A stretch of DNA of 64,000 bases from Promethearchaeota archaeon. Its GTDB lineage: Archaea; Asgardarchaeota; Lokiarchaeia; Sigyniarchaeales; SOKP01. Shown here piece after piece: positions 7,570 to 33,858 of this stretch. Location: contig JAHLWH010000192.1 in assembly GCA_019058015.1 (NCBI GenBank), positions 302-64,301 on the forward strand, given 5' to 3'. The notes below the pieces were generated by a model. The model was not told the origin of the DNA, did no database searches, and worked only from the letters and a program-made list of their open reading frames with translations. A program made the position numbers and the translations under genes. Within the stretch, counting starts at the first letter, position 1. Every line of letters begins with the position of its first letter.

Positions 7570-9951
7570 TTAAAAAATTATTTTATTTTTTTTTGTCCAA
7601 TTAATTAATTGTTCTATTCCTTCTTGAGGATTTATTTTTGGGTTCCAATTGAGTTTTTGTTTTGCTTTGGATATATCAGAGATGTAGACTTTTTGATCAC
7701 TTGGTCTCCAATCAAAAAATTCTAGATTTATTTTTTTATCTAATTTATTTTCAAGTAAAGATATTAACTCAAGTAAAGAAAGTGTATTTTCCTTTCCACC
7801 ACCCATACAAAATACTTCATGTTTTAATTTTTGAGAGTTTTTAATGAATTTATCATATGCATTAATTAAATCAGATACATATAATAAATCGCGAACTTGT
7901 TTTCCATCTCCATAGATATTGATTTTTTTATCTAATATTGCTGAAATTACAAAATGAGCAACCCATCCTGGGTCCTCAAAGCCGAATTGCCTTGTTCCGT
8001 AAATACAATTATGAACCAAAAAACCATTAGCTATAAAAATATGAGTATTTTCAACAGTAATATCATATATATCTTCCATCTCTATTTGTTTAATTTCAAT
8101 TATATTATCCCATAATAATTCTTTGGGAAGATTTTTATTATAAAACCTAAACCATTTTATAAATGATTTTTCATTGCTTTTATCCCACTCCATAAAATTA
8201 TATAATTCAGAATTTCGATAAGGATGACAAGCAAATCCGACTTTTGCAAAATTTGTTCTGTTTTTTTTTCCTGCATAAATTTTAAATACTCTTTGAATTG
8301 TTGTTACTCCAGATTTTCTTTTATAATCACCACCATTAAAAATTTCACTTGTTTTTACTCCAAACTCTTGTAAAAGTATTTTTTTTATTGTATTAAGATA
8401 ATCATATAAATTGGATCCGAGTTTTTCATCTTTACTTTGTGCAAATGAAAGACCCCCGTATCTCTCATCAGTATAAGTTATTCGAGCAAGTTCAGCAGAA
8501 AATAGACCTGTTAAAAAACATCGTCGTGTTTCTCTATCGCTTTCTAAAATCCAATTTGGAATATTAAAGGATTTTAAAGCTTTATCTCCTAATGGGACAC
8601 CCAATAATTGAAATAAAGAGCTATATTCTGCTTGAGTTATGACTATTCTTATACTTTTTCCATTTATTACTCTTCCATTAGTTAATTTAGATTTAGAAAT
8701 AGTAATTTGTTCTTTAGAATGAGGTATTCCCAATGAATCCAAAATCTTTTTTATAAAATTAATTTCTTCTTCTTTACCATAAATCTGTAATGCTAAAGAG
8801 ATATTATTCCTATTTTTAGCTTGATATGTATAAAGATTAGCATCTCCAAAACAATAACCAACTAATTCTATTATTCTTTGATAACCTCTTGCAGCTTTTG
8901 AAAAGGGAAGTAATCCTTTTTCTTCCATAGATTTTATTTTTCTTTGAATTGTTATTTCTCTAATATTTAATTTTTTTAGATTTTTATAAATATCATCCTT
9001 AGTAACTAATATTTCACAATTATCTTCAAAATCTATATATTCTTTTTCAATTTGAGGATAAATACATATTAATTCACCATAATTTAATGAATCTATTCTC
9101 TTAAATCCATTTGGTGTATAAAATCTATGGTCTCCTGTTGCTTTTATTATATGATTTCTTCTTGTAGTTATTTTATAAAGTATTTTATTTTCAGAATTTG
9201 TCCTTAATTGTTTAATTACATTAGAAAAAACAATTTTTTTACCATCAAATGAAAGAAGAATATCATTTTCATTAATATCCATTATTTTTTTAGAACCAAG
9301 TATAGTTTGAATAATTGTATCTCCTGTTAAGCACGACATTCTAAACACCCCAGTTTTTAATCCATATATGTGTCCATATTCTTGAACATAAACATCAGCA
9401 CAAAATTTAGAAGCGCCATACGGAGTATGTTCGCATAAATCTGTAGAAAATTCCTCAGATATGCCATTTTTATATTCTGAAGTAAATTCATATCTTGTTT
9501 CTTTTTCCTCAATATCACATTCATTAACGTTATTACCGAATACTTTATTTGTAGAACAAAAAACTATTGCAGGATTTGATTTCGAAATTCTCACAGCTTC
9601 CAATAGATTATAAGTTCCAATTAAATTATTCTCGAAATCTTCTTTTGGATTGGTTACTGAAGTGGTTACTGCAGTCTGTCCTGCAGCATGAATTAATACA
9701 TCAATTTCATTTTTTTTTAATAAATCCTTTAAAAAGTCAAAATCTCTTATATCTTTTTGGCAGAACTCGATATTCTTGTATTGATGCAAATAATTCCAAT
9801 TATACATTGCATTTTTATCATCTTTATGCAACAATCTTGCACGGGATAAATTATCAATTACAATGACTTTATTATTTTTTTGTTTTGCATAATATTCAGC
9901 CACGTGTGAGCCAATAAAACCCCCACCGCCAGTAACAACGATTTGATTCAT
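7570..9951 (-). CDS. NAD-dependent sugar epimerase (CDP-paratose 2-epimerase-like SDR) interrupted by an intein
   Basis: The N-extein 'MNQIVVTGGGGFIGSHV...VIDNLSRA...YGASKFCAD...GVFRMS' and C-extein 'CIYGTRQFGFEDPGWVAHF...GDGKQVRD...' join into a ~351-aa extended SDR. It has the GxxGxxG and YxxxK motifs. Confidence 0.9.
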   Translation of the reverse strand: MNQIVVTGGGGFIGSHVAEYYAKQKNNKVIVIDNLSRARLLHKDDKNAMYNWNYLHQYKNIEFCQKDIRDFDFLKDLLKKNEIDVLIHAAGQTAVTTSVTNPKEDFENNLIGTYNLLEAVRISKSNPAIVFCSTNKVFGNNVNECDIEEKETRYEFTSEYKNGISEEFSTDLCEHTPYGASKFCADVYVQEYGHIYGLKTGVFRMSCLTGDTIIQTILGSKKIMDINENDILLSFDGKKIVFSNVIKQLRTNSENKILYKITTRRNHIIKATGDHRFYTPNGFKRIDSLNYGELICIYPQIEKEYIDFEDNCEILVTKDDIYKNLKKLNIREITIQRKIKSMEEKGLLPFSKAARGYQRIIELVGYCFGDANLYTYQAKNRNNISLALQIYGKEEEINFIKKILDSLGIPHSKEQITISKSKLTNGRVINGKSIRIVITQAEYSSLFQLLGVPLGDKALKSFNIPNWILESDRETRRCFLTGLFSAELARITYTDERYGGLSFAQSKDEKLGSNLYDYLNTIKKILLQEFGVKTSEIFNGGDYKRKSGVTTIQRVFKIYAGKKNRTNFAKVGFACHPYRNSELYNFMEWDKSNEKSFIKWFRFYNKNLPKELLWDNIIEIKQIEMEDIYDITVENTHIFIANGFLVHNCIYGTRQFGFEDPGWVAHFVISAILDKKINIYGDGKQVRDLLYVSDLINAYDKFIKNSQKLKHEVFCMGGGKENTLSLLELISLLENKLDKKINLEFFDWRPSDQKVYISDISKAKQKLNWNPKINPQEGIEQLINWTKKNKIIF
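8008..9333 (-). mobile_element. Intein (442 aa) with LAGLIDADG homing-endonuclease domain
   Basis: Starts with Cys ('CLTGDTII', codon 9333-9331). Block B is 'TGDHRFYT'. The two LAGLIDADG blocks are 'LVGYCFGDANL' and 'FLTGLFSAELA'. It ends 'FLVHN' (Asn codon 8010-8008), followed by the +1 Cys (8007-8005). Confidence 0.9.
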
Positions 9952-14118: not shown

Positions 14119-14622
14119 ATGGAAAAACTTCAAATATTAAGGAGTTCTCCTAACTACGACGAGTTGGTCAAATTATATAAAAAGGAGAAAAATTTTAAGC
14201 TGAAGGAGCGATACCACGCTCTCTTTTTGATGTACGAGCTTAAAAATTGCACTAAAGTTGCAAAATTGCTCAAAAGATCCCGAAGGACGATTCAATTATG
14301 GGTAACTGTGTTTAATGAGGGAGGTATAAACGCGTCAATTCTAAATACGCCTCCCGGACGCCCATCAAGGCTTTCAAAAAGTCAAATAGAAGAATTAAAA
14401 GCGGATATTCTAACGCATCCTCGTAATTTAGGGTACGAGTTTAGCAATTGGGAGGGGAAGAGCGTATCTTACCACATTAAAAAGAAATTTGACGTGGAAC
14501 TTAAAGTGCGCCAATGCCAAAACCTTCTTCATAAAATGGGTCTCACGCTCCAGCGCCCGAAATACAAGTTTCCAAAAGCCGATCCGGAGAAACAAAAGGA
14601 GTTTGTGAAGGAATATTTTTAA
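14119..14622 (+). mobile_element. IS630/Tc1-mariner-type transposase, N-terminal DNA-binding half only
   Basis: '...ERYHALFLMYELKNCTKVAKLLKRSRRTIQLWVTVFNEGGI...GRPSRLSKSQIEELKADI...WEGKSVSYHIKKKFDVELKVRQCQNLLHKMGLTLQRPK' is the paired HTH region of IS630 transposases. No DDE domain follows. The gene is visibly GC-richer than its flanks. Confidence 0.7.
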
Positions 14623-15005: not shown

Positions 15006-15797
15006 CTAGTAAAAAAATTCATAGTTTGGATAAAAATCCTCTATTTTTTTCTTAATTAAGGTAAATTCATCACCTACAATTTTAATAATTTTTGGTATTT
15101 TTCCTACCTGTCCTACTTTTTCCTCCCTACTAATAAAAGCTCCGAATATTCCTTCGAGATCATCCACAAGATCTAAACCCTTTTTTATTGACTTTTCAAT
15201 ATCAGAGCCTTTTACGGCATTAGCAATTTTTGTAGCAGCACCATCAGCAAGAGTGGCATTTTTTGCGAAGATAGTAACGATATCAGATTCTCCGAAACTA
15301 ATTGCATGACCAATTTTAGCGGAGCTTGAACCAATGCCAGAAGGAGAATCATTTTTAGTTATAAGGAAACCTAATTTTCCACCCAGTAGATTTTTTCCTG
15401 CATATAATCCAACTTTAATGGATTCTTTAGCATTAATTGATATTTCTCCCCCATTTTCAACAACTGCTATCTTCAATGGGAACAATCCCTCATTCATTTT
15501 CATTTTTTTTACCATTATATCAGCAAGAGCGCCAGCAACTGTAGCCATCGGACCAACATCGCATATTGCTGAATATTTAACCATAAGTCTAATAATTTCA
15601 GAAGGATTTTTGACTTTTATTGGTGAAAGAGATTTTAAAAAAATCTCATTTTTATACACAAATTTCTCAAGAATCGTTCTATGTTTATAAAAAGATTTAA
15701 TAGCTAATTTAATTGCCTTTTTTGACTCAGAGATTATAGTGACATCTGATTCCTTTTCAATGAAGTGATACGAGAATTTATTCATTAAAAATACCAT
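15006..15797 (-). CDS. UPF0280-family protein (ApbE-like fold)
   Basis: 'CDVGPMATVAGALADIM', 'ENGGEISI', 'GIGSSSAKIGHAISFGESDIVTIFAKNATLADGAATKIAN' follow the pattern I recall for archaeal UPF0280 proteins. Confidence 0.5.
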   Translation of the reverse strand: MVFLMNKFSYHFIEKESDVTIISESKKAIKLAIKSFYKHRTILEKFVYKNEIFLKSLSPIKVKNPSEIIRLMVKYSAICDVGPMATVAGALADIMVKKMKMNEGLFPLKIAVVENGGEISINAKESIKVGLYAGKNLLGGKLGFLITKNDSPSGIGSSSAKIGHAISFGESDIVTIFAKNATLADGAATKIANAVKGSDIEKSIKKGLDLVDDLEGIFGAFISREEKVGQVGKIPKIIKIVGDEFTLIKKKIEDFYPNYEFFY

Positions 15798-16014: not shown

Positions 16015-16437
16015 TTATCCTATTTTGGCAATCCAAGATGAATTCCCTTTGATGATTTTGTACTTGTTGAATATTTTCTTATGAATTTTTTTTAAAAAAG
16101 AAAAATATTTTTTTCCAAATAAAGGTTTTCCCTCTTCCATTGCAAATAAGGTTGTACAATGCCGGTTTTCGATCATATTGATGAATTCATCGGGAGTAAA
16201 ACCGATAGGGTCAATAGGGTCAAGAGTCTCGATCAAGTCATAAAGCAATTTTGCCCTTTCATAATAATTTTTAGGTAATTTCGAAGATATCACGATTAAA
16301 TCAACATCGCTTCGCTCGTTAAAATCCCCTCTTGCCAAAGATCCATATAAAATAATGCATTTGGGATTTAATTTTTTAATAATATTTTCACAAAATTTTT
16401 TAATGCCATAATTAATAGTTTTTAAGGAAGTATTCAT
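16015..16437 (-). CDS. Minimal nucleotidyltransferase (MNT), TA-module component
   Basis: 'IILYGSLARGDFNERSDVDLIVIS' is the GS...DxD motif. 140 aa. Its start overlaps the stop of the upstream HEPN gene by 4 nt. Confidence 0.8.
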   Translation of the reverse strand: MNTSLKTINYGIKKFCENIIKKLNPKCIILYGSLARGDFNERSDVDLIVISSKLPKNYYERAKLLYDLIETLDPIDPIGFTPDEFINMIENRHCTTLFAMEEGKPLFGKKYFSFLKKIHKKIFNKYKIIKGNSSWIAKIG

Positions 16438-16829
16438 TTTTTAATACCTTTAATAAAATTAATTATTATTGACGCATTATTTAAAGCCTCTTCAGCAATA
16501 ACTTCATCATGATATTCGAATGGTGACCCTGTGGAATATGCATTTGGATATCGAGAGGGAATGTAATGTAAATCTAACTTTTTACAAGCAGTTAATATTG
16601 AAGAAACATTAATATCATGATTTTTTAGGTCGCTAGTTAATTTTGTTAAAGAGTGACCAAAAGGAGTTGATCCTAAACCATATAAAAGCGCTTTTAATGA
16701 AAACTCAGCTGCTTGTTGACATTTAAAACAGCTCCAATTGAAAAATCCATTTTTCTTATCTATTTCTGCTGATTTTAATGTATTGTCTGCTTCATTCATC
16801 CATCTATTATATTCATTATTATCAAACAT
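16434..16829 (-). CDS. HEPN-domain protein, partner of the MNT
   Basis: 131-aa helical protein ('AEFSLKALLYGLG...GHSL', 'HYIPSRYPNAY'). Translationally coupled to the MNT gene. Confidence 0.7.
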   Translation of the reverse strand: MFDNNEYNRWMNEADNTLKSAEIDKKNGFFNWSCFKCQQAAEFSLKALLYGLGSTPFGHSLTKLTSDLKNHDINVSSILTACKKLDLHYIPSRYPNAYSTGSPFEYHDEVIAEEALNNASIIINFIKGIKK

Positions 16830-17113: not shown

Positions 17114-17608
17114 ATGTCCGAAGAAGATAAATATAGCAAAATTGTAAAACAAATTAAATCAGAATTGAAAACCAATACATTAATCGCAAATAAATATGGT
17201 GTAATATTAGGTTCTGAAATTGAAGATTTGCATAAAGGAAAAATTATTCCGCCAGAAATTTCGGATTTGATAAATCAGAGAGCGATATTCGCTAAAAGTC
17301 TTAAATTGAAAAATATAGATTCAATAACTTTAGAAAGCGAAAAATGCTTTTTCTTAATCACTAAAACTAGTGAATTAATTTTACTAGCGCAGTTAAAAAA
17401 AAGTGTAGATTTATCACAACTTATTCCAAGTGTAAAAAAGTTTCTCGAAAAATTAGCAAAAGGTATTTCAAAAAAATTTGAAATTGATGAATTCACAAAA
17501 TTTGAATTCATAAAAGAAATAATTAAGTTAGATGATTCATTAAAAACAGATGAAGATAGACAACAGAAATTTAATATTATTAAAGATTTAATTAAGTACA
17601 TTTCATAA
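17114..17608 (+). CDS. Roadblock/LC7 (MglB-like) domain protein
   Basis: 164 aa. 'LIANKYGVILGSE' ... 'ITLESEKCFFLITKTSELILLAQL' follows the roadblock alpha-beta-alpha pattern (compare MglB). It sits directly upstream of a small-GTPase gene. Confidence 0.55.
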   Translation: MSEEDKYSKIVKQIKSELKTNTLIANKYGVILGSEIEDLHKGKIIPPEISDLINQRAIFAKSLKLKNIDSITLESEKCFFLITKTSELILLAQLKKSVDLSQLIPSVKKFLEKLAKGISKKFEIDEFTKFEFIKEIIKLDDSLKTDEDRQQKFNIIKDLIKYIS

Positions 17609-17662
17609 ATTATTATAAATAAATTTAAAACGTGTATTAGGAGTTTAAGATTTAATATTTAG

Positions 17663-19519
17663 GTGAATATTATTCTAAGGCAAGTTTATATTTATAAAGA
17701 GGGTGAATTGATATATTCCAGTCAGTTTGGCAAGGCATTATCGCAAGAGGTTTTTGATAGTTTGTTCAAACAACTACGTAAAGATGCTATGGCTGCACCA
17801 AGTGATAAGATTGAATATCATGATTACTATAAATATAGAATCACATACGCTACGGAAAAAAAAATAGATTTAATGTTCTTATTTGTAACGGGTATAACTG
17901 ATTCATCCAAAGATATTAAAACTGAATTACTTAGATGTAAAAGGGAATTTCTTAATCTTTTTGGGGATATAATCAAAACTGAATTTGATTCTAAAACTTT
18001 TGAAGTATTTGACCCAACAATTGATGTAATTCATAAAAATTTACGCCCCAAAATTTCACTCGTAGGATTTTCTGGTGTTGGAAAGACAACTATAACTAGA
18101 TTAATTAGGGCTGAAGAAATACCAATGGAACATATCCCTACTATAACTGGAGACATAGCAACTATTAAAATAGGAAAACTACACTTTCATTTATGGGATT
18201 TTGCAGGACAAGAACAGTTTAGCTATTTATGGAATAACTTTATTAAAGGAAGTGATGCAGTCCTTCTCATTACAGATTCAACTTTAGAAAATATAGAAAA
18301 AAGTAAATTTTTCCTCGATTTAATAAAAGATGAAGCACCCCATGCACATACTGCAATAATTGGAAACAAACAAGATCTTTCAGATGCTATTCCTGTAACA
18401 GAAATTGAGAACATTTTAGGTTTAAAAACTTATAATATGATTGCAAATAGAAAGGAAAATCGGGATAAAATGATTACAATAATTGCTGATATCCTTGAAA
18501 TGAGTGCAGAAGTAAGCCCCTTATTGAAACCATTGATTGAGAGAGATAAATTATTACAAGAAGCCGAATTATCACTTAATGAAGGCAATTTCCAAAATGC
18601 TTTAACCTTATTTGAAAAAATTTCGGATTTATGTCTTGATTTAGGTGATGATAGTTTAGGAAATGAATTTAATGAAAAAGCCCAGAAGATTAAAGAAATT
18701 TTAGTAAAGATGGAAACAACCCCAGTTGAAATTGTTAAACAAAAAGAAGAAGCTCAACCTACATCGGTTGAATCAACATCACCTGAACCCAAAGTTGCTC
18801 CGAAACCGGCAATTCCTAAACCACCAGCAATAAAAAAAACAACTGTACCAGAACCTAAAGCTGCTCCGAAACCAACAATCCCTAAACCTCCAGCAAAAAA
18901 AAAGCCAACTGTACCAGAACCTAAAGCTACTTCCAAACCAACTACACCTAAATCACAATCCACACAGCCAAAATTAACAATTAATCTAGAAGATTTTAAA
19001 ATTAAACCTCGTCCAACAAATATCTTATCCGCAAAACCCACTGGACCTAAACAATCATTAACTATTAGCCCCTTTAGTGCTATAAAACAAGAAGAACCTC
19101 AACCAAAACCATATACTACTAAACCCAAATCACCATATCAACAACCCTTACCTGATTCTAAAAAACCATCTCCGCCAATGCAAATAGCACAACCACCCAC
19201 CCCACCGAAAGCTCCACCTCAAACCTCTGTTCCAAAGCCTCTAACTCAGCCAACCCCAGCCCCAACCGAACCCCCAACAACAACCGTAAGAGACCAAGCA
19301 GGCACACAAAAAAATGAACTTGAAAAAACCTTAATGGATTTAAAGATTAAATTTGCAAATATTGCTAAAATGGAACTCGACCTTGATATGAAAGAACTTT
19401 CGGGAGAAATAACCTCAGAAGAGTTTAATAAGAAATCACAAAAAATGAAAGCCATAAAAGAGAACATATCAAAACAAATTGACGATATTCAGAATCTGTT
19501 AAATAGTTTTAGCGCATAA
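17663..19519 (+). CDS. Multidomain small GTPase: longin-like N-domain + Arf/SR-beta-like G domain + helical region + Pro/Lys-rich repeats + coiled coil
   Basis: G1 'GFSGVGKTT', G3 'WDFAGQEQF', G4 'GNKQDL' (NKQD is typical of Arf-type GTPases). The N-terminal ~125 aa ('ILRQVYIYKEGELIYSSQFG...YKYRITYATEKKIDLMFLFVTG') looks longin/SRX-like. The C-terminus carries PEPKAAPKP repeats and a heptad-like tail. Confidence 0.8.
   Translation: MNIILRQVYIYKEGELIYSSQFGKALSQEVFDSLFKQLRKDAMAAPSDKIEYHDYYKYRITYATEKKIDLMFLFVTGITDSSKDIKTELLRCKREFLNLFGDIIKTEFDSKTFEVFDPTIDVIHKNLRPKISLVGFSGVGKTTITRLIRAEEIPMEHIPTITGDIATIKIGKLHFHLWDFAGQEQFSYLWNNFIKGSDAVLLITDSTLENIEKSKFFLDLIKDEAPHAHTAIIGNKQDLSDAIPVTEIENILGLKTYNMIANRKENRDKMITIIADILEMSAEVSPLLKPLIERDKLLQEAELSLNEGNFQNALTLFEKISDLCLDLGDDSLGNEFNEKAQKIKEILVKMETTPVEIVKQKEEAQPTSVESTSPEPKVAPKPAIPKPPAIKKTTVPEPKAAPKPTIPKPPAKKKPTVPEPKATSKPTTPKSQSTQPKLTINLEDFKIKPRPTNILSAKPTGPKQSLTISPFSAIKQEEPQPKPYTTKPKSPYQQPLPDSKKPSPPMQIAQPPTPPKAPPQTSVPKPLTQPTPAPTEPPTTTVRDQAGTQKNELEKTLMDLKIKFANIAKMELDLDMKELSGEITSEEFNKKSQKMKAIKENISKQIDDIQNLLNSFSA
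18782..18952 (+). repeat. 66-nt (22-aa) tandem repeat, ~2.6 copies, inside the GTPase gene
   Basis: Units at 18782-18847, 18848-18913 and 18914-~18952 encode 'PEPK(V/A)APKP(A/T)IPKPPA(I/K)KK(T/P)TV'. Confidence 0.85.
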
Positions 19520-19857
19520 AAGATTATAGAATAAATTCCTTAAAATTATATGTTAATAGAAATATTTTTCTTTTTTTCATTTTGAATTATAAATTTCGTT
19601 TATATAAATTATGAGAATTTTGTATTTTTAAAATTTATATAAGAGTTATTTTTTTGTTTGCTTTTTTCATGTCTACTTTCCTTTTTATCTGGGAAATATC
19701 AATCTTAGTTTAATGTGAATAACAGTAAAATATAAATACCAAAATAAAAACAAATTAACATACCAGAAATTTGGAATTAAAATAAAAATTTATAAAGATG
19801 TGAAATATAAAAATAGTTGTGAGGAAATCAACCATGGTAGTGTATAAATGATAATAG

Positions 19858-20070
19858 AATGCCTATTATCAATATACATCTATTGAAATTGTCTCAACTT
19901 CAGATAAAAATTGGGCAGATGCCGTAAGAGAAGGTTATGCCGAAGCAAAAAAGAGTTTAAAAGGTATTAGAAATATATCCATTATTCAATCTGATGTTAA
20001 AGTAAAAGAAGATAAAGATCAACTAATCTATCGAGTAAGAATGCAAATAAATTTTGAACTTGAGAAATAA
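19858..20070 (+). pseudogene. Dodecin-like ORF with no in-frame start codon after a TGA-TAA-TAG triple stop
   Basis: My manual translation 'NAYYQYTSIEIVSTSDKNWADAVREGYAEAKKSLKGIRNISIIQSDVKVKEDKDQLIYRVRMQINFELEK*' matches the dodecin pattern (Y..IE(I/L)VGTS ... V.F.LE). The frame contains no ATG, GTG or TTG before the conserved core. Confidence 0.5.
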
Positions 20071-21877: not shown

Positions 21878-22408
21878 TTAGTGCCCTGAACGAGATTTAA
21901 TAATTCGCCGGGTCAATTCACCAAAAGCCTCCTCAACATGCACTCCAGTCTTAGCAGATGTCTCAATGTAAATTGAATTCTCGGCCTCAGCAAATCTTTT
22001 CGCTTCCTCCCTGTCAATAACTTCACCAACATCCTCAATTAAATCAATTTTATTACCTGCAAGAACAAATGGTATGTGTTCTCCAGCAAATTGCCGAATC
22101 TCCGCTAACCATTTTCGAATATCAGCATAAGTCTGTGCCCTTGAGAGATCGAAAACTAGAAGAACACCCGCTGCACCCTTATAAAACGTGCTTCTAATGA
22201 ACTCAAATCTTTGTTGCCCCCCAATATCCCATATACTCAAAGTCGCAATCTCGTCTCCCTCATAATTAACATCCTTTGTCAAAATATCAACACCAACAGT
22301 TAGTTTATAGTTTGTAGCAAATCGATTCTTGATAAAACGCTGAACTAAAGAGGTCTTTCCCACTGCGGCAGCACCACATAAAAGAACCTTAAGCTTGTAT
22401 GAAGACAT
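21878..22408 (-). CDS. Rab/Ras-like small GTPase (stand-alone G domain)
   Basis: G1 'GAAAVGKTS', G2 'TVGVD', G3 'WDIGGQQRF', G4 'GNKIDL', G5 'ETSAKTG'. 176 aa. The C-terminus ends '...KSRSGH' with no Cys prenylation motif. Confidence 0.85.
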   Translation of the reverse strand: MSSYKLKVLLCGAAAVGKTSLVQRFIKNRFATNYKLTVGVDILTKDVNYEGDEIATLSIWDIGGQQRFEFIRSTFYKGAAGVLLVFDLSRAQTYADIRKWLAEIRQFAGEHIPFVLAGNKIDLIEDVGEVIDREEAKRFAEAENSIYIETSAKTGVHVEEAFGELTRRIIKSRSGH

Positions 22409-25074: not shown

Positions 25075-28000
25075 ATGTTTGAGAAACCATCACCCCAGCA
25101 ATTAGCCGAGGAGGCAGTTCGGCACTTAGATTTAGCCGAGAAATATGAGTCTCAGCAGAATTGGGCGAAAGCTATTGTAGAATATAAGAGGGCTGTTGAG
25201 TTATTAAAACAAAGTGGGTTATTATCAGTTCATGTTGATGATATAAATGAGCGGATTATGCGTTTAACTCAAGTAGCTCAACAGGAGAAGGCATTACAGC
25301 GAAAGAAAGCCGAAGCTGAGTTTTCTGGTATAAGGGATGAAGCATTTCACTTTTTGGATAAGGCAAAGTCTTTAGAAGTCAATGGTCGTTATCAAGAAGC
25401 CATATCTCGTTATTCCTCAGCTATAAAGTTATTGGAACAGGCTAAATGGGATGAGAGTTTATTAGGACAAATCAAGTTAAAACTTGAAAAATTAATGGAG
25501 ATCTTCAAACAGCAACAAATTATGGCCCATCAAAGAGCATTACGGGCTGAACAGACACCCACCAAGGTTGAAAAGTCTTTTGGAGCTCCGGAAACTACAA
25601 TTATTCCTGCAGGACTTGATAAACGAAGTAAATTACGAATGGAATTTGAGACCCAAAAACGAAAGGAAGAGGATATACAAAATCGTGCTTTTGAATCAAT
25701 TGATATGGGTAAAAAGTTTTTGGAGGAAAAGAATTTTGATGTAGCAAAATCAAAATATCTCGAAGCTTTAGATCTATTGAGATCTATTAGATGGACTGAC
25801 GAGAATTTGTCTTATTTATATAGCGATATTGATTCGGTTGAAAGGCAGAGGGTAGCATTTGAAAAAGCAGAAAGTCAGAAAGTTGAGCAAGCTGCTAGAG
25901 CTACACCCCAACCCGTTACTTCGGAAATAGCTCCTCAGAAAGAAATAGTTCCAGAAATTATGGATGTACAATCAAAAGCAATAATGAAATATGAAGCGAA
26001 GAAAAGACGTGAGGAGGAGGTTCAAAAGAAAGCATTTGAATTGATGGATGAGGGTGAGCGTTTAATAAAGGTCAAGGAATTTGATGAAGCCATGGAAAAG
26101 TATGGTATGGCTGGGCGGCTCTTAGAATCTATTGGGTGGGCTGACCAATTAGTTCATATTAATAAAATCATTGATAAGATATATAAAGATAGAGTAAATT
26201 ATAAAAAGTTGCAAGCACAGCAAATTAAAGCAAAAGAAGCAGCGGTTACTGCACCAGTCCCTGAAATCTCAGTAAAAGCAAAAGCGAATATTGAATTTAA
26301 AAAGCAGAAAATAGTAGAGTTTGAAGAACGAAATAAGCATGAAGAGCATATTCAAGAAGAAGCTTTTAAGATGATTGATATTGCAAAACGATTTGAGCGA
26401 GAGAAGCAATATGATGGGGCAATCGAGAATTTTAATAGAGCAATTGATTTATTACAATCAATAGGGTGGACTGATTATGTTAAGCCAATATACAAGTTCA
26501 TCTCTGATATTAGAAGGAGACAAGAAAATGAACAGAAAGTTCTCGAGGAGAAAAAATCTCGAGAGAAAGAGTATTTAAAATTCCAAGAGATTATAAAAAA
26601 GCATGAAAAGATTCAGGTAGACCAGGAAGTAGAAGGAATTTCCCTAAAACAGAAAGAGCTTGAAAAGACACGGGAAATAGATCACGCAAAAGAGAAAAAA
26701 GCTTTTAATGTAATAAATGAAGCCGATGAATTGGTAAGAAAAGGCAATTATGAAAAGGCAATTAAAAATTATAAAAAGGCACGTGATATTTTTAGAGAGA
26801 TAGGTTGGGCTGATCAAATTGCGACAATTGAAACTACATTAAACACGGTTCAATATAAATATCGTGAATTTTTGAAAAATGAGGAGACAGCCAAGGAATT
26901 AAAAGTTAAGCGTGCTAAGGAAGATGAAGAATTTCGAAAAACAATTGCCGAACAGATTAGAAAAGAGAGGGAAAAGTTAGAGAAGAAAAAGATCGAAATA
27001 AGAGAATATGAAACAGAGATTGAATATCGGAAGAAAAGAAAGGTTGAAGCTTTTAAAATTTTAGATGAGGCAGAAGAATACACATTACGCGGGGATTTTG
27101 ATATTGCCATAGAAAAATATTCCATGGCATTAATGATTTTTGCAGAAATTCAATGGACTGATGAATTATCACTCATTCAAGATGCTATTCGAGATCTTGA
27201 AAACAGAAAGAAAGAAATGAGACTTCTAAAACTAAAAGAAAGAGAAGATGCTTTAAAAAGAGAAAAGGAAACAAAAGAGTTTCAGGATAAAATTTCTGAA
27301 CAATTAAGAGAGGAACGTATGAAGTTAAGAGAAAAAGAGATTACAGTTAGAGAATATGAAAAAGAAGTGAAATATCGGGAAAAACAAAAGGAGAAAGCAT
27401 TTAAGATCTTAGATGAAGCTCAAAAATTGACAATCAGTGGAGATTTTGATGATGCTATAGAAAAATATGAAGTAGCTTCGATTATTTTTGCAGAAATTCA
27501 ATGGGATGATGAGTTAGCACTTATTCAGAATGCGATTCGAGAACTTGAGAATAAAAAAATTGAAAGAGAATTATGGGAACAGAAGACTCGAGAGGTATTA
27601 TTGAAACGTGAGCAAGAAACCCAAGAATTTCAGGATATGATTGCTGAAGAATTAAGGATGGAGCGTGAAAAGTTAAGAGAGGGTCAAATTGGACTAAGAG
27701 AACACGAAGCTGAAGTAAAATATCGTGAAAATCGAAAAAATGAGGCTTTTGATATTTTAGATGCAGCAGAGATGTTAATAATGAGGGGGGATTTAGATGC
27801 TACGATTGAAAAATATCATGAGGCATCGATTATTTTTGCTGAAATTCGGTGGACAGAAGAGTTGGCACTTATTCAAGGTGCAATACGCAAACTTGAGCAA
27901 CAAAAGAAAGAGAAAGAACTGTGGGAACAAATAGTAAGAGAGGAAGCTATCAAAAGGGAACAAGAAGCAAGAGAATTTCAGCATGAAATTGCTTTAATCA

Positions 28001-31000
28001 AGAGTCAGCAAGAAGAGAAAGTAAAATTTGCGCAATATATTCAGGAACAGAAAAAAATCTTATCAGAGCAGAAATTAAAGAAACAAGAAGAAGCATTGAA
28101 AATGCTTGAGAGTTCAGATGAGCATATAAGGGAAGGAAATTTAGATGAGGCTATTAGAATTCACAAATCGGCAATAGAAATTTTTAATCAAATTGGTTGG
28201 AAAGGTCCTTATCTTAGGGTAATTAAAGATACACTAGAGAATTTAAATAGACGTAAAGTTGAAATCTCACAAAAGTTGCAACGAAGGAAGGAATTAGCAG
28301 TTAAACATGAAGCTGAAGAAAGAGAATTTCAAGCGAGAATTACTCATAATATTGAGTTAGAAAAGAAAAAAATGCTTGTTAAAAAAATCACGACTCAGAC
28401 TAAAGAACGATTACTTGCTTATCGAGAAAAAAAGCGTATTGAAGCATTTGATGTAATGAATAAGGCGGAGATTTTAACAAAACGTGGAAATTTTGATGAA
28501 TCTTTAGACCATTATCGTCAAGCTGATATTATTTTAAGTGAAATTCAATTTCCCTCACAGGCAGTTAAAGAAATGATACAGAAAATTAAATTGAAACAAA
28601 AGGAACAAAAGGAGTTATTACGGAAAGAAAGAAAGCTTCAAATTCATAGGCAATTAGAGGAGGAGACATTTCAAAAAGAAATTACTCGTCGGTTAGCACT
28701 TGAGAGAGAGAAGATGATGGTGAAGAAGATAGCAATCGAAACACGCGAGAAGATAGAAGTATATCGTGAGCAAAAACGAGAGGAAGCATTTAAGATATTG
28801 GATGAGGCGGAAGATTTAACTAAAACCGGGAATTTTGAGTTGGCAATTAATGCATATCGAAATGCCGTGCTTCTTTTAAGTAAAATACAATATCCTATTG
28901 ATTCGATTCATGAAATGATTAGAAAGGTCCGGTTAAAAAAGGTTGAACAAGAGGAACTTAAACGAAGAGAAATTAAACTGGCAGCCCAAAGGGAGAGAGA
29001 ATCAAGAGAATTTCGGGATAAAATCGCTTGGGAATTAAGAAGAGAGAGTGAGAGATTAAGAAGAAGGACAATTGCACTTATAGAATATGAAGCTGAAGTA
29101 GAATATCGTGAAGATAGAAAAAAGGAAGCTTTTGATGTGTTAGATTCAGCAAAGTTATTAACACTTAGAGGAGATTTTGATGCATCTATTGAGAAATATC
29201 GGAAAACTTCTATAATATTAGCGGAAATTCAATGGACAGAAGAATTAACACTAATTCAAAATACAATTCGTCAACTGGAAAATAGGAAGAAAGAACAAGA
29301 ACTTTGGGAACAACAATCTCGAGAAGAAGCAATTAAACGAGAACTTGAAGAGAGAGAATTTCAAGAAAAAATTACTGAGGCATTAAGAAAGGAGGGTGAA
29401 AAATTAAGAGAAAAAGAGATTGCACTTAGGGAATATGAACAAGAAAAAGAATATCGAGAAAAAAGGAGGGATGAGGCATTAAAGATTTTGGATAAAGCAG
29501 AAAAATCGACTATTGCTGGAGATTTTGATACAGCTATAGAAAAATATCATGAAGCATCAATCATTTTCGCTGAAATACAATGGACAGAGGAATTAGCACT
29601 TATTCAGAACGCAGTTCGCGATCTTGAGTATAAAAAGAAAGAACGGGTGTTTTGGCAACAAAAAGCTCGAGAAGATGCAATTTGGAGGGAATTAGAAGCA
29701 AAAAAATTTCAAACAGAGATTACTGAGGCATTAAGAAAGGAACGTGAAAGATTAAAGGATAAAGAGATTGCAATCAGAGAGTATGAAGAAGAAGTAAAAT
29801 ATCGGGAGATAAGAAAAGAGGAAGCATTTCATATTTTAGATTCAGCACAAATTTTAACAATGAGGGGAAATTTCGATGGGGCTATTGAGAAATATCATGA
29901 AGCCTCAATAATTTTAGCAGAAATTCAATGGACAGAAGAATTAGAACATATTCAAAATGCAATTAGTGAGCTTAATAAGAAAGAGAAAGAAAGAGAGCTT
30001 TGGCAACTAAAATTAAGAGAGGCAGTACTTAAACAAGAGCATGAAATAAGAGAATTTCAGCATAAAATTTCCATAATGAAAAAGAATGAAGAAGATAAAG
30101 TAAAAATGGCGCAGTTTTTACAAAAACAGCAAAAGGTTTTATCAGAACAACAACTAAAAAAGCAAAATGACGCGTTGAAGATGCTTGAAGTTGCAGATAC
30201 TCATATAAAAAGAGGTCAATTAGATGATGCTATTGAAATTTATAAATCAGCAGTAGATATTTTTAATAAGATAGGTTGGAAGGGTCCTTATCTTAAAGTT
30301 TTCCAAGATACATTTGATAATTTAACTAAACGCAAACTTGAAATCGAACAATTAAAACAACATCAAATACAATTAGCAGCTAAACGTGAAGCAGAGGAAA
30401 GAGAATTTCAAGCTAAAATTGCTCGAAGTATAGAGTCTAAAAAGAAGAAGATGCTAGCAAAAGAAATTGCTATTCAAACTAGGGAAGAAATAATTGCTCA
30501 TCGAGATAATCGACGTAATAAAGCATTTGATATTATGGATAAAGCAGAGGAATTAACTAAAGCTGGAAAATTTGATGAATCATTAACGCTTTATCGCCAA
30601 GCTGATATAATATTAAGTGAAATTCAATTTCCATCATATGCGGTAAGAGAAATGATACAGAAAATCAAAATGAAGCAAAAGGAACAAGAGGAATTACGTC
30701 AAAAAGAGAGCGAACTTCAAATAAAAAGACAATTAGAAGAAGAGGCATTTCAAAGAGAAATTGCTCGTCAGGTAGCACTTGAGAGAGAGAAGATGATAGT
30801 GAAGGAAATTGAGATTGAAACTCAAGAAAATATAAGGGCATACCGAGAAAAACGCCGAGATGAAGTATTTAAAGTATTAGATGAAGCGGAATTCTTAACA
30901 AAAAGAGGAAACTTAGATTTAGCTATTGAAACCTATCGCAAAGCAGCTCTTTATCTAACTGAAATTCAATATCCAGTTGATGCAATTTATGAAATGATTA

Positions 31001-33858
31001 AAAAACTTCGCATTAAAAAAATAGAAGAAGATCAAATGAGACAGAGAAAAATTGAAGCACCTACTCAGAGAGAGCTTGAATATAGACGTTTTCAGGAAGA
31101 GATTACTCTAGAATTGAAAAGAGAAGAGGAAAGACTCAAAGAAAAAGAAATCATACTTAGAGAATATGAAAAAGAAAAGGAATATCGTGAAACAAGAAAG
31201 AATGAAACATTCAATATTTTAGATACTGCAAAACAATTTACAATTAGGGGAAATTTTGATGCCGCTATAGAAAAATATCACGAGGCTTCAATAATTTTGG
31301 CTGAAATTCAATGGACTGAGGAATTAACAAATATTCAAAATGCTATTCGTGAACTTGAAAGGAGAAAGAAGGAAAGAGAACTTTTGGAGCAAAAAGCAAG
31401 AGAAGAAGCGCTTAGGAGGGAACAAGAAACGAGAGAATTTCAATACAACATTGTGCAAATGAAGGCAATGAACGCAGAAAAAATAAAAATGGCACAATAT
31501 ATTCAAGAACAACAAAAGGTTTTATCAGAAGCAAATTATTTAAGACAAAATGAAACGCTAAAAATGCTTGAAGCTGCAGATACATATATAAAAAGGGATA
31601 AATTAGATGATGCTATTGAAATATACATATCTGCTATGGGAATACTTAATGAAATAGGATGGAAAGGACCATATTTAAAAGTAATTCAAGACACACTAGA
31701 TAATTTAAATAAGCGCAAACTCGAAATTGAACAAATCAAACAACAGCAAATTGAGTTAGCAGTTAAACGTGATGCAGAGGAGAGAGACTTTCAGGCTAAA
31801 ATCGCACGAAGTATAGAGAATGAAAGACAGAAAATGTTAGCAAAAAAAATTGTTATTCAGACTCAGGAAGAATTACTTGCTCATCGTGAAAATAGGCGTA
31901 AGGAAGGATTTGACATTATAGATAAAGCTAAAGAAATGACGAAAGAAGAAAATTTTGAGGAAGCATTAAGACTATACCGTCAAGCCGATATAATTTTAAG
32001 TGAAATTCAATTCCCATCAAACGTTGTAAAAGAAATGATTCAAAAAGTCAAATTGAAACAAAGGGAACAAGAAGAATTACGTCAAAGAGAAAGAGAGATT
32101 CAAATTCAGAAGCAATTAGAAGAAGAAGGATTTCAAAGGGAAATTGCTTATCACATAAAGCTTGAGAAAGAAAAAATGAGGTCAAAAAAGATTGCGCTTG
32201 AAGCACAAGAAATGATTAAAGATTATCGCGAACAAATAAGAGAAGAAGCATTTAGAGTACTAGAAGAGGCAGGACAATTAACCAACTCTGGAAAATATGA
32301 ATTAGCGATTAGTGCTTATAGAAATGCCACGTTAATTCTTAGCGAGATTCAATATCCTATCGATTCAATTAATGAGATGATTAAAAAAGTTCAGAATAAA
32401 AAATTAGAGCAAGAACAGCTTAAACATATAGAAATGGAGGCAGCGTTCCAAAGAGAGCAAGAAGAAAAGTACCTTGAAGAGGAAATTGGCCAAAAAGTTC
32501 AGTTAGAACAAGAAAGAATGATGAAGAAGTTAAAAGCTATTGTATCACGTGAAAAACTACAAGTACGTTTTGAACAACGAAGAGAAGAAGCATTCAAGGT
32601 ATTAGAAGAAGCAGAACAATTAATTAAGACTGGTAACTTTGATGAAGCAATTGAAACATACCGAAAAGCTTCATTAATTCTAAGTGAAATTCAATATCCC
32701 TTAGAGTCAATCAATGAGATGATCAGAAAAGTACAAATGAGAAAGTTCCAACAAGAACAGATTATTCAACAAGGAAGGGAAGCACAACTTCAGAGAGAAA
32801 GAGAAGAGGCCGATCTTAGAAGAATTATTGAAGAACGTCAGCGTCAAGAAGAGGAAATGAAAAGAGCAAGATATTTGGCTCTAAAGCAAAGAGAAGAATT
32901 AATTGCAAGAGTAGAAAGCCGTAGAGAAGTTGCATTTTCCCTATTGGAGAATGCTGATAAATTTTTAAAGCAATTTCCTCCTGATTTTGATAAATCAATT
33001 GAGTTATATTTAGAAGCTAGAAATATTCTTTTAGAAATAAATTGGGAGCCAGAAATTGCGAATTTAGACACTTTAATCAGAAATTTAAGAGAAGAAAAAC
33101 AAAAATTTATTATTCAACAAAAGCAGGAAGAGGAGGTCCGAATTCGTGCTGCTGAAGAATATGAGAAATTTAAGCAGGAAATCCTAAGAAAAAAGTTAGA
33201 AGTTAAAAGAGTTCAAGAAGAACAACGGATAAAGCTTGAAGCATTTAAATTTGAACAAGAACAACGAGAAAAACTTCAACAAGAGGGTTTTAATCTTCTT
33301 GATGATGCAAAAAAATCAGTTTTAATGCATCAGTTTAATTTTGCTTACAAACAATTTGATCAGGCTGTTGAAAAATTTAAAAGTATTGGCTGGTTTGAAC
33401 AGATAAAATATATTGAAAAGGAAATAGAAACTACTAAGAAATTAGAAGAAAATGCAATAAAAGCACAGGAAGAGGTTAAAAGAGCTCAAGAGGCACTCTT
33501 AAAACAAAAAGGATTAGAAGAACAGCGGCGAATAGAAGAAGAAACAATGAAAATACAATCAGTTAAGGAAATTACAGCAATTTCAGATGACATTATCAAA
33601 TCATTAAGACAACAACGATTAGAACAAGAAAGTATTCAAGTTGTTACTAAAGAACAAATAAAATCAGATGCTGCAAGTTTTGCAAAAGAGTTAACAAAAA
33701 TGATTAAAATTAAACAAAATTTAGTAGCAGAAATTGAAAAAGCTGAAGAGGACGAGAAACAAAAAGCAATAGAGAAAGAAAAACAAAAAACCAAGGAAGA
33801 ACTAAAAGATCTACATAAAAGGATAAAAGATGCTGCCAAAAAATCAAAGAAAAAATAA
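25075..33858 (+). CDS. Giant (2,927 aa) cytosolic repeat protein: ~25 MIT-like three-helix modules separated by Glu/Arg/Lys-rich helices
   Basis: Uninterrupted 8,784-nt ORF with no TM or signal segment. The recurring unit is 'EAFxxLDxAExLxxxGxFDxAIExYxxAxxIxxEIxW..EL..IQxAIxxLE', followed by 'REFQxxI...REYExExEYRExRK'. Confidence 0.9.
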   Translation: MFEKPSPQQLAEEAVRHLDLAEKYESQQNWAKAIVEYKRAVELLKQSGLLSVHVDDINERIMRLTQVAQQEKALQRKKAEAEFSGIRDEAFHFLDKAKSLEVNGRYQEAISRYSSAIKLLEQAKWDESLLGQIKLKLEKLMEIFKQQQIMAHQRALRAEQTPTKVEKSFGAPETTIIPAGLDKRSKLRMEFETQKRKEEDIQNRAFESIDMGKKFLEEKNFDVAKSKYLEALDLLRSIRWTDENLSYLYSDIDSVERQRVAFEKAESQKVEQAARATPQPVTSEIAPQKEIVPEIMDVQSKAIMKYEAKKRREEEVQKKAFELMDEGERLIKVKEFDEAMEKYGMAGRLLESIGWADQLVHINKIIDKIYKDRVNYKKLQAQQIKAKEAAVTAPVPEISVKAKANIEFKKQKIVEFEERNKHEEHIQEEAFKMIDIAKRFEREKQYDGAIENFNRAIDLLQSIGWTDYVKPIYKFISDIRRRQENEQKVLEEKKSREKEYLKFQEIIKKHEKIQVDQEVEGISLKQKELEKTREIDHAKEKKAFNVINEADELVRKGNYEKAIKNYKKARDIFREIGWADQIATIETTLNTVQYKYREFLKNEETAKELKVKRAKEDEEFRKTIAEQIRKEREKLEKKKIEIREYETEIEYRKKRKVEAFKILDEAEEYTLRGDFDIAIEKYSMALMIFAEIQWTDELSLIQDAIRDLENRKKEMRLLKLKEREDALKREKETKEFQDKISEQLREERMKLREKEITVREYEKEVKYREKQKEKAFKILDEAQKLTISGDFDDAIEKYEVASIIFAEIQWDDELALIQNAIRELENKKIERELWEQKTREVLLKREQETQEFQDMIAEELRMEREKLREGQIGLREHEAEVKYRENRKNEAFDILDAAEMLIMRGDLDATIEKYHEASIIFAEIRWTEELALIQGAIRKLEQQKKEKELWEQIVREEAIKREQEAREFQHEIALIKSQQEEKVKFAQYIQEQKKILSEQKLKKQEEALKMLESSDEHIREGNLDEAIRIHKSAIEIFNQIGWKGPYLRVIKDTLENLNRRKVEISQKLQRRKELAVKHEAEEREFQARITHNIELEKKKMLVKKITTQTKERLLAYREKKRIEAFDVMNKAEILTKRGNFDESLDHYRQADIILSEIQFPSQAVKEMIQKIKLKQKEQKELLRKERKLQIHRQLEEETFQKEITRRLALEREKMMVKKIAIETREKIEVYREQKREEAFKILDEAEDLTKTGNFELAINAYRNAVLLLSKIQYPIDSIHEMIRKVRLKKVEQEELKRREIKLAAQRERESREFRDKIAWELRRESERLRRRTIALIEYEAEVEYREDRKKEAFDVLDSAKLLTLRGDFDASIEKYRKTSIILAEIQWTEELTLIQNTIRQLENRKKEQELWEQQSREEAIKRELEEREFQEKITEALRKEGEKLREKEIALREYEQEKEYREKRRDEALKILDKAEKSTIAGDFDTAIEKYHEASIIFAEIQWTEELALIQNAVRDLEYKKKERVFWQQKAREDAIWRELEAKKFQTEITEALRKERERLKDKEIAIREYEEEVKYREIRKEEAFHILDSAQILTMRGNFDGAIEKYHEASIILAEIQWTEELEHIQNAISELNKKEKERELWQLKLREAVLKQEHEIREFQHKISIMKKNEEDKVKMAQFLQKQQKVLSEQQLKKQNDALKMLEVADTHIKRGQLDDAIEIYKSAVDIFNKIGWKGPYLKVFQDTFDNLTKRKLEIEQLKQHQIQLAAKREAEEREFQAKIARSIESKKKKMLAKEIAIQTREEIIAHRDNRRNKAFDIMDKAEELTKAGKFDESLTLYRQADIILSEIQFPSYAVREMIQKIKMKQKEQEELRQKESELQIKRQLEEEAFQREIARQVALEREKMIVKEIEIETQENIRAYREKRRDEVFKVLDEAEFLTKRGNLDLAIETYRKAALYLTEIQYPVDAIYEMIKKLRIKKIEEDQMRQRKIEAPTQRELEYRRFQEEITLELKREEERLKEKEIILREYEKEKEYRETRKNETFNILDTAKQFTIRGNFDAAIEKYHEASIILAEIQWTEELTNIQNAIRELERRKKERELLEQKAREEALRREQETREFQYNIVQMKAMNAEKIKMAQYIQEQQKVLSEANYLRQNETLKMLEAADTYIKRDKLDDAIEIYISAMGILNEIGWKGPYLKVIQDTLDNLNKRKLEIEQIKQQQIELAVKRDAEERDFQAKIARSIENERQKMLAKKIVIQTQEELLAHRENRRKEGFDIIDKAKEMTKEENFEEALRLYRQADIILSEIQFPSNVVKEMIQKVKLKQREQEELRQREREIQIQKQLEEEGFQREIAYHIKLEKEKMRSKKIALEAQEMIKDYREQIREEAFRVLEEAGQLTNSGKYELAISAYRNATLILSEIQYPIDSINEMIKKVQNKKLEQEQLKHIEMEAAFQREQEEKYLEEEIGQKVQLEQERMMKKLKAIVSREKLQVRFEQRREEAFKVLEEAEQLIKTGNFDEAIETYRKASLILSEIQYPLESINEMIRKVQMRKFQQEQIIQQGREAQLQREREEADLRRIIEERQRQEEEMKRARYLALKQREELIARVESRREVAFSLLENADKFLKQFPPDFDKSIELYLEARNILLEINWEPEIANLDTLIRNLREEKQKFIIQQKQEEEVRIRAAEEYEKFKQEILRKKLEVKRVQEEQRIKLEAFKFEQEQREKLQQEGFNLLDDAKKSVLMHQFNFAYKQFDQAVEKFKSIGWFEQIKYIEKEIETTKKLEENAIKAQEEVKRAQEALLKQKGLEEQRRIEEETMKIQSVKEITAISDDIIKSLRQQRLEQESIQVVTKEQIKSDAASFAKELTKMIKIKQNLVAEIEKAEEDEKQKAIEKEKQKTKEELKDLHKRIKDAAKKSKKK
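25438..33420 (+). repeat. In-frame array of 24 modules at 330-351-nt spacing (plus one shorter N-terminal module)
   Basis: The anchor is the codon three residues before the conserved W/F/Y. Anchors start at 25438, 25783, 26128, 26458, 26797, 27145, 27493, 27841, 28189, 28540, 28882, 29224, 29572, 29920, 30268, 30619, 30961, 31303, 31651, 32002, 32344, 32686, 33034 and 33382. I checked all of them to be in frame with 25075. Confidence 0.9.

Follow-up and report, generated by a model that had tools for sequence, protein, structure and literature searches.

A probable cognate Roadblock partner for a longin and Arf-like GTPase, encoded by a conserved two-gene module of Promethearchaeota (Lokiarchaeia)

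The genomes of Asgard archaea encode from dozens to approximately 100 small GTPases together with many Roadblock and longin proteins, and the question of which regulator belongs to which GTPase is raised by two neighbouring genes in a stretch of 64,000 nucleotides (hereafter the window) of contig JAHLWH010000192.1 from a Promethearchaeota archaeon (assembly GCA_019058015.1, positions 302 to 64,301). In an earlier annotation made from the letters alone (the sequence-only reading), the first, open reading frame 1 (ORF1; 164 amino acids (aa), 17114-17608), was taken for a Roadblock gene and the second, ORF2 (618 aa, GTG start, 17663-19519), for a fusion of a longin-like domain with an Arf-type GTPase. 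Both reading frames, which lie on the forward (+) strand with all of their parts described below, were recovered at the coordinates assigned to them there; their order and closeness likewise stand, the gap between them (17609..17662, +) measuring 54 nt and not the 55 nt reported. To judge from its 618 codons in DNA of ~28% G+C (~24-36% for the window) and from hundreds of homologs at 60-95% identity, ORF2 is not a chance reading frame. The analysis indicates that the two products probably form a cognate complex of a Roadblock protein with a GTPase of the longin-GTPase-unknown (LGX) architecture, encoded by a conserved two-gene module of Promethearchaeota (Lokiarchaeia).

The nature of the ORF1 product was addressed with an AlphaFold2 (AF2) model built from a 50-sequence alignment. 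The core of the model (residues 10-110) was predicted with a local distance difference test score (pLDDT) of ~87-91, and its elements follow the order α-β-β-α-β-β-β-α expected of Roadblock/LC7 proteins, with helices at residues 3-18, 47-62 and 100-121 and strands at 21-26, 30-34, 70-74, 78-84 and 88-95. When the model was compared with the PDB by Foldseek, the top 50 matches were found to be Roadblock, MglB, LAMTOR, and dynein LC7 proteins, the best of them being Roadblock3 of the Asgard archaeon MK-D1 (9jue; template modelling (TM) score on target 0.78-0.80, E=7e-6), with MK-D1 Roadblock2, another MK-D1 Roadblock (7yh1), MglB (6hjm), a Thorarchaeota Roadblock (7f8m), and LAMTOR2 among the other top matches. 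Sequence profiles had nothing comparable to offer: ORF1 matched no Pfam or NCBIfam model, none of the 50 family members matched Pfam Robl_LC7 at E<=1, and the family profile retrieved no relatives from the PDB, with chance-level matches at most. The sole sequence link to Roadblocks was provided by the MK-D1 ortholog of ORF1, which matched 7yh1 at E=0.005. As modelled, ORF1 is a Roadblock at the level of fold, beyond the reach of sequence profiles, and it is at that level that the call made by eye was borne out.

Two parts can be distinguished in ORF1, namely the Roadblock/LC7-fold core (aa 1-121, 17114..17476) and a family-specific C-terminal extension (aa 122-164 and the stop codon, 17477..17608). 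Among the 50 aligned homologs, the F127-x-x-F130-x-F132 motif of this extension is invariant and its terminal helix conserved, and two helices were placed at residues 132-163 by AF2 with low model confidence. Generic Roadblock structures, of ~110-135 aa, possess no equivalent of this extension.

The second gene was found to encode five parts, in the order longin domain, Arf-like G domain, tetratricopeptide repeat (TPR)-like helical segment, proline-rich spacer, and C-terminal helical domain. The N-terminal domain (aa 1-126, 17663..18040) was modelled by AF2 from a 28-sequence alignment with a pLDDT of 88.9 and a predicted TM score (pTM) of 0.83, and both its element order (β-β-α-β-β-β-α-α) and its structural likeness are those of a longin. 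Its best Foldseek matches in the PDB were the longin domains of VAMP7 (TM 0.74-0.77), SYBL1 (0.76), and Sec22b (0.70-0.74), followed at lower scores by the sigma subunits of AP complexes, SRX, Ykt6, and Bet5; Roadblock and LAMTOR chains scored lower (TM 0.42-0.55). No family match for these residues was obtained from Pfam or NCBIfam, and the family profile gave only chance-level matches against the PDB. On the strength of the model, residues 1-126 are a longin at fold level, which upholds the longin half of the earlier 'longin/SRX-like' call on residues ~1-125; SRX is not the closest relative, VAMP7 and Sec22b scoring higher.

Arf or Rag GTPases are direct targets of the longins in the FLCN-FNIP, GATOR1 Nprl2/3, and C9orf72-SMCR8 complexes (PMC12290439), and a comparable role in cis, that of a GTPase-activating protein (GAP) of the FLCN/SMCR8/Nprl2 type, was considered for the ORF2 longin. 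The conserved 'GP motif' in the β1-β2 loop, which along with an arginine finger characterises such longins (PMC12290439), is absent from ORF2, in which this loop reads YKEGEL (family consensus K-E/D-G-E), and for this reason such a role appears unlikely from the sequence. ORF2 has no DENN domain either.

The small-GTPase domain that follows (aa 127-282, 18041..18508) contains the motifs singled out by eye at the places given for them, namely the P-loop GFSGVGKTT (aa 135-143, 18065-18091), WDFAGQ (aa 178-183, 18194-18211), and NKQD (aa 235-238, 18365-18376), in addition to the switch I motif IPTITG (aa 158-163, 18134-18151). GKTT, PTITG, WDFAGQ, and NKQD are invariant in a 32-member family alignment, and the catalytic glutamine of switch II is present as Q183. 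Pfam ranked Arf first (75.8 bits, E=3.7e-21), ahead of Roc (58.7), Ras (53.6), and Gtr1/RagA (22.5), the last being a borderline match (cut-off 22 bits) that lies 53 bits below Arf. The 60 best PDB sequence matches were all Arf, Arl, or ArfR proteins, headed by 8OUN and 8OUM, the structures of Asgard HodArfR1 reported by Vargova et al. From the threonine of switch I to the aspartate of G3, the alignment to Arf1 runs without a gap, giving an interswitch of Arf length. The sequence-only reading had allowed that the G domain might turn out to be of the MglA or Era type; this was not the case, its greatest similarity being to Arf.

Similarity to Arf is nevertheless not membership of the Arf clade. 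In ORF2, the G motifs and the best sequence similarity are those of Arf proteins, whereas the free N-terminal amphipathic helix of a strict Arf is missing, its place at the N-terminus being occupied by the 126-aa longin, and the N-terminal glycine for myristoylation is absent. The clade placement is taken from published trees: ArfL was reported by Vargova et al. not to be directly related to eukaryotic Arf, and in the tree of Zhu et al. (PMC11914678) Arfl falls close to Rag and Rup2 and not within the Arf clade. 'Arf/SR-beta-type', the label given by eye, is thus apt as a statement of likeness and overstated as one of kinship. The Rag/Gtr layout, in which a G domain with Rag-type motifs is followed by a C-terminal Roadblock, was not found in ORF2 either, and the profiles of the region after the G domain matched only helical or TPR-type families.

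The class of ORF2 was assigned by orthology. Its MK-D1 ortholog (P0062, WP_147664160.1; 64% identity over 99% of ORF2 aa 1-351) appears under 'ArfL' in Vargova et al. (Table S3) and is labelled 'LGX' in the supplement of Tran et al., and ORF2 shares this orthology and the Asgard-restricted distribution of the ArfL group; on sequence grounds, it is a member of the ArfL class with LGX architecture. The ArfL/LGX GTPases of Vargova et al. (2024/2025) and Tran et al. (2024) have the same longin-G-X order as ORF2, with no difference at the protein level. A search with ORF2 aa 1-351 returned 958 protein clusters, of which more than 120 show 59-95% identity and most are 540-615 aa long, and 381 stretches encoding ORF2 relatives were found in a scan of one genome per species. 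The homologs are labelled almost without exception Promethearchaeota or Lokiarchaeota (NCBI Promethearchaeota includes the class Promethearchaeia), and all named homologs and loci belong to Asgard archaea. The whole architecture, including the C-terminal domain, is kept across the family; tail-less LGX relatives of ~345 aa also exist.

Such proteins have been encountered before. Klinger et al. (2016), as far as their work is summarised in Dey et al. (PMC4917890), counted 41 longin domains in Lokiarchaeum, five of which were fused to Arf-like GTPases. For MK-D1, Tran et al. (2024; PMC10933270) built models of the full set of 74 small GTPases, of which 26 are fused to Roadblock or longin, and called this fused class 'Rag-like but close to Arf'. 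The architecture is therefore ordinary for Lokiarchaeia and the protein type already catalogued; what the sequence-only reading regarded as an unusual four-part arrangement turns out to be the usual layout in a large group of orthologs. The Roadblock-LGX pair is not mentioned by Tran et al., and the accessions of the MK-D1 ortholog are absent from the paper text in the literature searched; the accession numbers adjoining that of the MK-D1 GTPase, taken as guesses for its Roadblock partner, do not occur in their supplement either. What appears to be hitherto undescribed is the pairing with an upstream Roadblock gene, the lack of that gene in tail-less relatives, the covariation of the Roadblock with a helical hairpin of LGX, and the make-up of the 'X', that is, a TPR-like segment, a proline-rich spacer, and a private C-terminal domain.

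The first part of the X (aa 283-351, 18509..18715) begins with an SPLLKPL motif, in which S285, P286, L287, L288, P290, and R294 are invariant in the family alignment, and continues with the helical segment (aa 295-350) that had been noted by eye after the G domain. The family profile of this segment matches designed or consensus TPR proteins and the TPR of DNAJC3 at E values of 1e-3 to 3e-2, and weak Pfam matches to TPR_7 and TPR_12 were obtained; on these matches, the segment may be described as TPR-like. A reading of the hairpin as an MIT domain was tried and rejected, as hhalign against the human VPS4A MIT gave a probability of 4.5%, and the VPS4B MIT gave E ~0.7 over the last helix only. 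In one family member, P0116 (609 aa), the TPR-like segment occurs a second time, within the proline-rich spacer.

The basic spacer of ORF2 (aa 352-544, 18716..19294) holds 50 prolines and 29 lysines in 193 residues. It includes a 22-aa tandem repeat (PEPKAAPKP...; aa 374-431, 18782-18955), which was recognised by Tandem Repeats Finder as a 66-nt unit in 2.7 copies at 18781-18956 (83% matches, score 233), in agreement with the 2.6 copies counted by eye, and the number of copies varies among relatives, as had been proposed for checking: P0001, at 95% identity, has ~6 copies of the 22-aa unit against ~2.6 in ORF2. A conserved linear motif follows (aa 437-476, 18971-19090), of ~40 aa with the pattern 'L.L.PEDF.VK.KPK...', which is present in 41 of 72 full-length members. 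Across these 72 proteins, the spacer measures 56-231 aa (median 200) with a proline content of 6-34%, and its tandem units are lineage-specific and mutually unrelated; its length is kept while its sequence changes fast.

The C-terminal end (aa 545-618 and the stop codon, 19295..19519), described by eye as a terminal coiled coil, is indeed helical, and proves to be a domain of ~70 aa conserved across the family, with the consensus 'DLKIK.ANI.K..LDLEMKEL.GEI..EE...K'. When 1.84 billion cluster representatives were searched exhaustively with its profile, it turned up in 95, always at the extreme C-terminus, and the longer matches, so far as they were scanned, proved for the most part to be LGX GTPases or their fragments. 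The domain is thus essentially private to the LGX family. In P0346 and P0308, two rare non-LGX proteins, it stands after a different N-terminus in one or two copies; in P0346, a Cys/His-rich N-terminus is followed by a proline-rich linker and then by the copies of the domain. The profile of the domain matched nothing in the PDB beyond chance level. Among known families, the CdvA-like coiled coil (PF18822) scored 24-25 bits for ORF2, below its gathering threshold of 30 bits, and was matched at E<=0.01 by 13 of 28 members, all sub-threshold, which amounts to resemblance and not membership; the GvpG model was matched by 4 of the 28, again as a resemblance only. A SHOCT reading of 'L..L.GEIT.EEF..K' was discarded, with one weak match (13 bits) in one of the 28 members.

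The case for a functional pair begins with gene order. In a profile search of 80 LGX loci, an ORF1 homolog was found directly upstream of the LGX gene, on the same strand and with a short spacer, in 74, or 74 of 78 when only loci with upstream sequence are counted. The six exceptions comprise two contig ends, two tandem GTPase duplications, and two loci with another protein in this position. In the tandem duplications (L050:1114-4881 and L078:4178-7890), two LGX paralogs stand head to tail. In the window itself, runs of T follow the ORF2 stop codon (~19563-19585) and no oligo-T tract occurs in the ORF1-ORF2 spacer, a pattern consistent with co-transcription of the two genes, although it carries little weight in DNA this rich in A and T. 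A syntenic block is shared by most of the 80 loci, comprising U263 (AbpE-like), Roadblock, LGX, aspartate kinase, and Rab-like GTPase genes. Because the whole block is syntenic, adjacency cannot by itself prove coupling, and three controls were used instead, namely remote lineages in which the flanks are not the same, relatives without the tail, and partial Mantel tests.

The first control favours the pair. In MK-D1, Harpocratesius, and L083, where the flanks differ and the Rab-like gene is not nearby, a Roadblock gene still lies directly upstream of LGX (Roadblock E 1e-34 to 1e-40), and the MK-D1 protein (171 aa, CP042905.2) is 33% identical to ORF1. The second links the Roadblock gene to the tail: in all three tail-less relatives with upstream sequence, no Roadblock gene was found upstream, the position being taken by UDP-glucose dehydrogenase and a non-coding gap.

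The third control was a mirror-tree analysis of 40-46 loci, in which shared history was removed using the distances of aspartate kinase and U263. Roadblock was found to covary with the TPR-like segment (the hairpin, aa 301-350) at a partial r of 0.77 (permutation p<=0.0005), a value that fell to 0.65 when the LGX longin and G domains were controlled for as well, and that stood at 0.80 in the largest clade (n=35), with a jackknife range of 0.61-0.80. The correlation of Roadblock with the longin was 0.45, dropping to 0.03 once the hairpin was controlled for; with the G domain it was 0.28 (0.14 in the largest clade), and with the C-terminal domain 0.15. As a control, the syntenic Rab-like protein gave 0.04 with the hairpin, and its correlation with Roadblock was 0.21 (-0.14 in the largest clade). 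Linkage does not explain the hairpin signal, because the DNA of the hairpin lies farther from the Roadblock gene than that of the longin. This pattern points to the helical segment after the G domain, and not the longin, as the likely partner surface of the Roadblock. The functional pairing supposed from the sequence-only reading thus draws support from both conserved adjacency and covariation.

From these observations we infer binding, and with it a direction of regulation, a role for the tail, and a cellular process. The Roadblock would bind LGX directly as its cognate partner, with the TPR-like segment as the main contact and the longin possibly contributing. A Roadblock/longin platform around a single G domain would then either set its nucleotide state, as GAP or guanine nucleotide exchange factor (GEF), or read that state out, in a mode likened to MglB-MglA and Ragulator-Rag. 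The proline-rich spacer would serve as a flexible tether, and the C-terminal domain may oligomerise or anchor the protein to a partner. The Rag/Gtr GTPases with Ragulator/EGO offer a precedent for a small GTPase working with platforms of the Roadblock/longin superfamily, and the MK-D1 ortholog was grouped as 'Rag-like' by structure (Tran et al., PMC10933270); the platform there is a C-terminal Roadblock, whereas ORF2 has an N-terminal longin, and the G4 motif of ORF2 is NKQD.

Several points weigh against this reading. Correlations in a mirror-tree analysis may stem from rate shifts that two proteins have in common, with no contact between them. Adjacency partly reflects the general gene-order conservation of the block and is weak evidence alone. 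The tail-less relatives keep the TPR-like segment without an adjacent Roadblock gene, so that either the gene for their partner lies at another place or the segment does its work unaided. At two loci (L061:40-1374 and L063:3854-5506), a 444-550-aa protein precedes the LGX gene in place of the Roadblock; this protein has no Pfam match and a hydrophobic N-terminal region by eye, and it may be an alternative partner. Lastly, typical longin dimer interfaces were seen by Tran et al. (PMC10933270) in AF2 homodimers of the longin-containing GTPases of MK-D1.

The last of these points feeds the alternative that survives best, although it is judged unlikely, in which the Roadblock acts in the manner of MglB, as a homodimer and classical GAP or GEF on the switch face, and LGX homodimerises via its longin, with neither a longin/Roadblock pairing nor a contact at the hairpin. 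The ORF1 model superposes on MglB (TM on target ~0.70) and on the homodimer structures of MK-D1 Roadblocks, and the order of the two genes mirrors mglB-mglA, where a Roadblock-fold protein is likewise encoded next to a small GTPase. Against it, Roadblock tracks the TPR-like segment far better than the G domain, a comparison that is not decisive as the G domain is so conserved that it holds little signal. The G domain is furthermore Arf-like and not MglA-like. The module differs from MglA-MglB also in the longin, TPR-like, and tail modules, which are absent from MglA, and in the C-terminal extension that ORF1 possesses.

Slightly more doubtful is a switch in cis, close to the idea of the sequence-only reading and resembling SRX and SR-beta of the receptor (SR) for the signal recognition particle, in which the longin would bind its own G domain according to the nucleotide and replace the amphipathic helix of Arf, leaving the Roadblock as an accessory. 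SRX is among the significant matches of the longin (1nrj and 5ck3, TM 0.51-0.66), and the gapless alignment to Arf1 described above gives the interswitch the length of that in Arf. The longin's final helix reaches as far as residue 125, and from residue 130 a conserved 'KISLVG' run leads into the P-loop; in Arf proteins, this position is taken by the amphipathic helix. On the other hand, the SNARE-type longins of VAMP7 and Sec22b match better than SRX, and published phylogenies do not include ArfL in the Arf/SR-beta clade. SR-alpha SRX and SR-beta likewise combine a longin-fold domain with an Arf-like G domain, although as separate polypeptides in eukaryotes, whereas the two are fused in ORF2, which has no transmembrane anchor. 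Such a switch is compatible with a cognate Roadblock-LGX complex, the two not being exclusive.

That the genes are neighbours only through the gene-order conservation of Lokiarchaeia, the Roadblock serving other GTPases such as the Rab-like protein 2.4 kb downstream, is in keeping with the U263, aspartate kinase, Rab-like, and epimerase genes being syntenic in 47-69 of the 80 loci and with the report by Tran et al. (PMC10933270) that in MK-D1 the genes for GTPases do not as a rule share operons with Roadblock or longin genes, but is very unlikely, given that the pair survives where the flanks differ and no Rab-like gene is near, that strand and short spacer are constant throughout, and that the Roadblock covaries after control with a segment of LGX and not with the Rab-like protein.

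A bolder form of the cognate complex, which goes beyond the pairing itself and is correspondingly improbable as a whole, would have the Roadblock dock on the TPR-like segment and not on the switch face, forming with the longin in cis a three-part platform specific to Asgard archaea, with the tether and the CdvA-like coiled coil linking the switch to membrane remodelling, division, or cytoskeletal assembly. If true, this docking would represent a previously undescribed wiring of Roadblock and small GTPase, and the two proteins would be the first GTPase and regulator to be assigned to each other in an Asgard archaeon in culture.

Other features of the window deserve a brief record. Between the AbpE-like gene (15006-15797) and ORF1 lies a HEPN/nucleotidyltransferase pair of toxin-antitoxin type (16015-16829, -), which is probably a recent insertion, as no relatives but the closest two, L001 and L003, share it. 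A 167-aa reading frame (14119-14622, +) contains winged-helix and homeodomain-like helix-turn-helix (HTH) domains (HTH_33, HTH_29, HTH_32) and, resembling the N-terminal part of a transposase, may be the remnant of a mobile element. Downstream of ORF2, a dodecin reading frame (19861-20070, +; Pfam PF07311, E=4.5e-14) lacks an in-frame ATG, GTG, or TTG start; it may be a pseudogene, contain a frameshift, or start at a non-canonical codon. In L087, the gene for the tail-less GTPase is likewise followed by a dodecin gene, of 68 aa. The Ras/Rab-like GTPase (176 aa, 21878-22408, -; Pfam Ras, E=3.2e-48) stands beside aspartate kinase and is unusually conserved, being 79-84% identical where LGX is ~50% and aspartate kinase ~58% identical. 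Farther away, a 792-aa NAD-dependent epimerase/dehydratase (7570-9951, -) contains an intein (Pfam Intein_splicing, aa 222-647), and homologs of a giant reading frame of 2927 aa (25075-33858, +) occur at 40 of the 80 related loci.

The lack of operons has been held by Tran et al. (PMC10933270) to hamper the matching of GTPases to their regulators, and to this the module described here is an exception: as a conserved pair that is present in the cultured MK-D1, it offers a concrete GTPase and regulator to work with. Should the complex prove real, it would reveal in what way Arf-like G domains were connected to Roadblock and longin platforms before the origin of eukaryotes, and the tail of LGX could be used to find what this switch attaches to in the cell.

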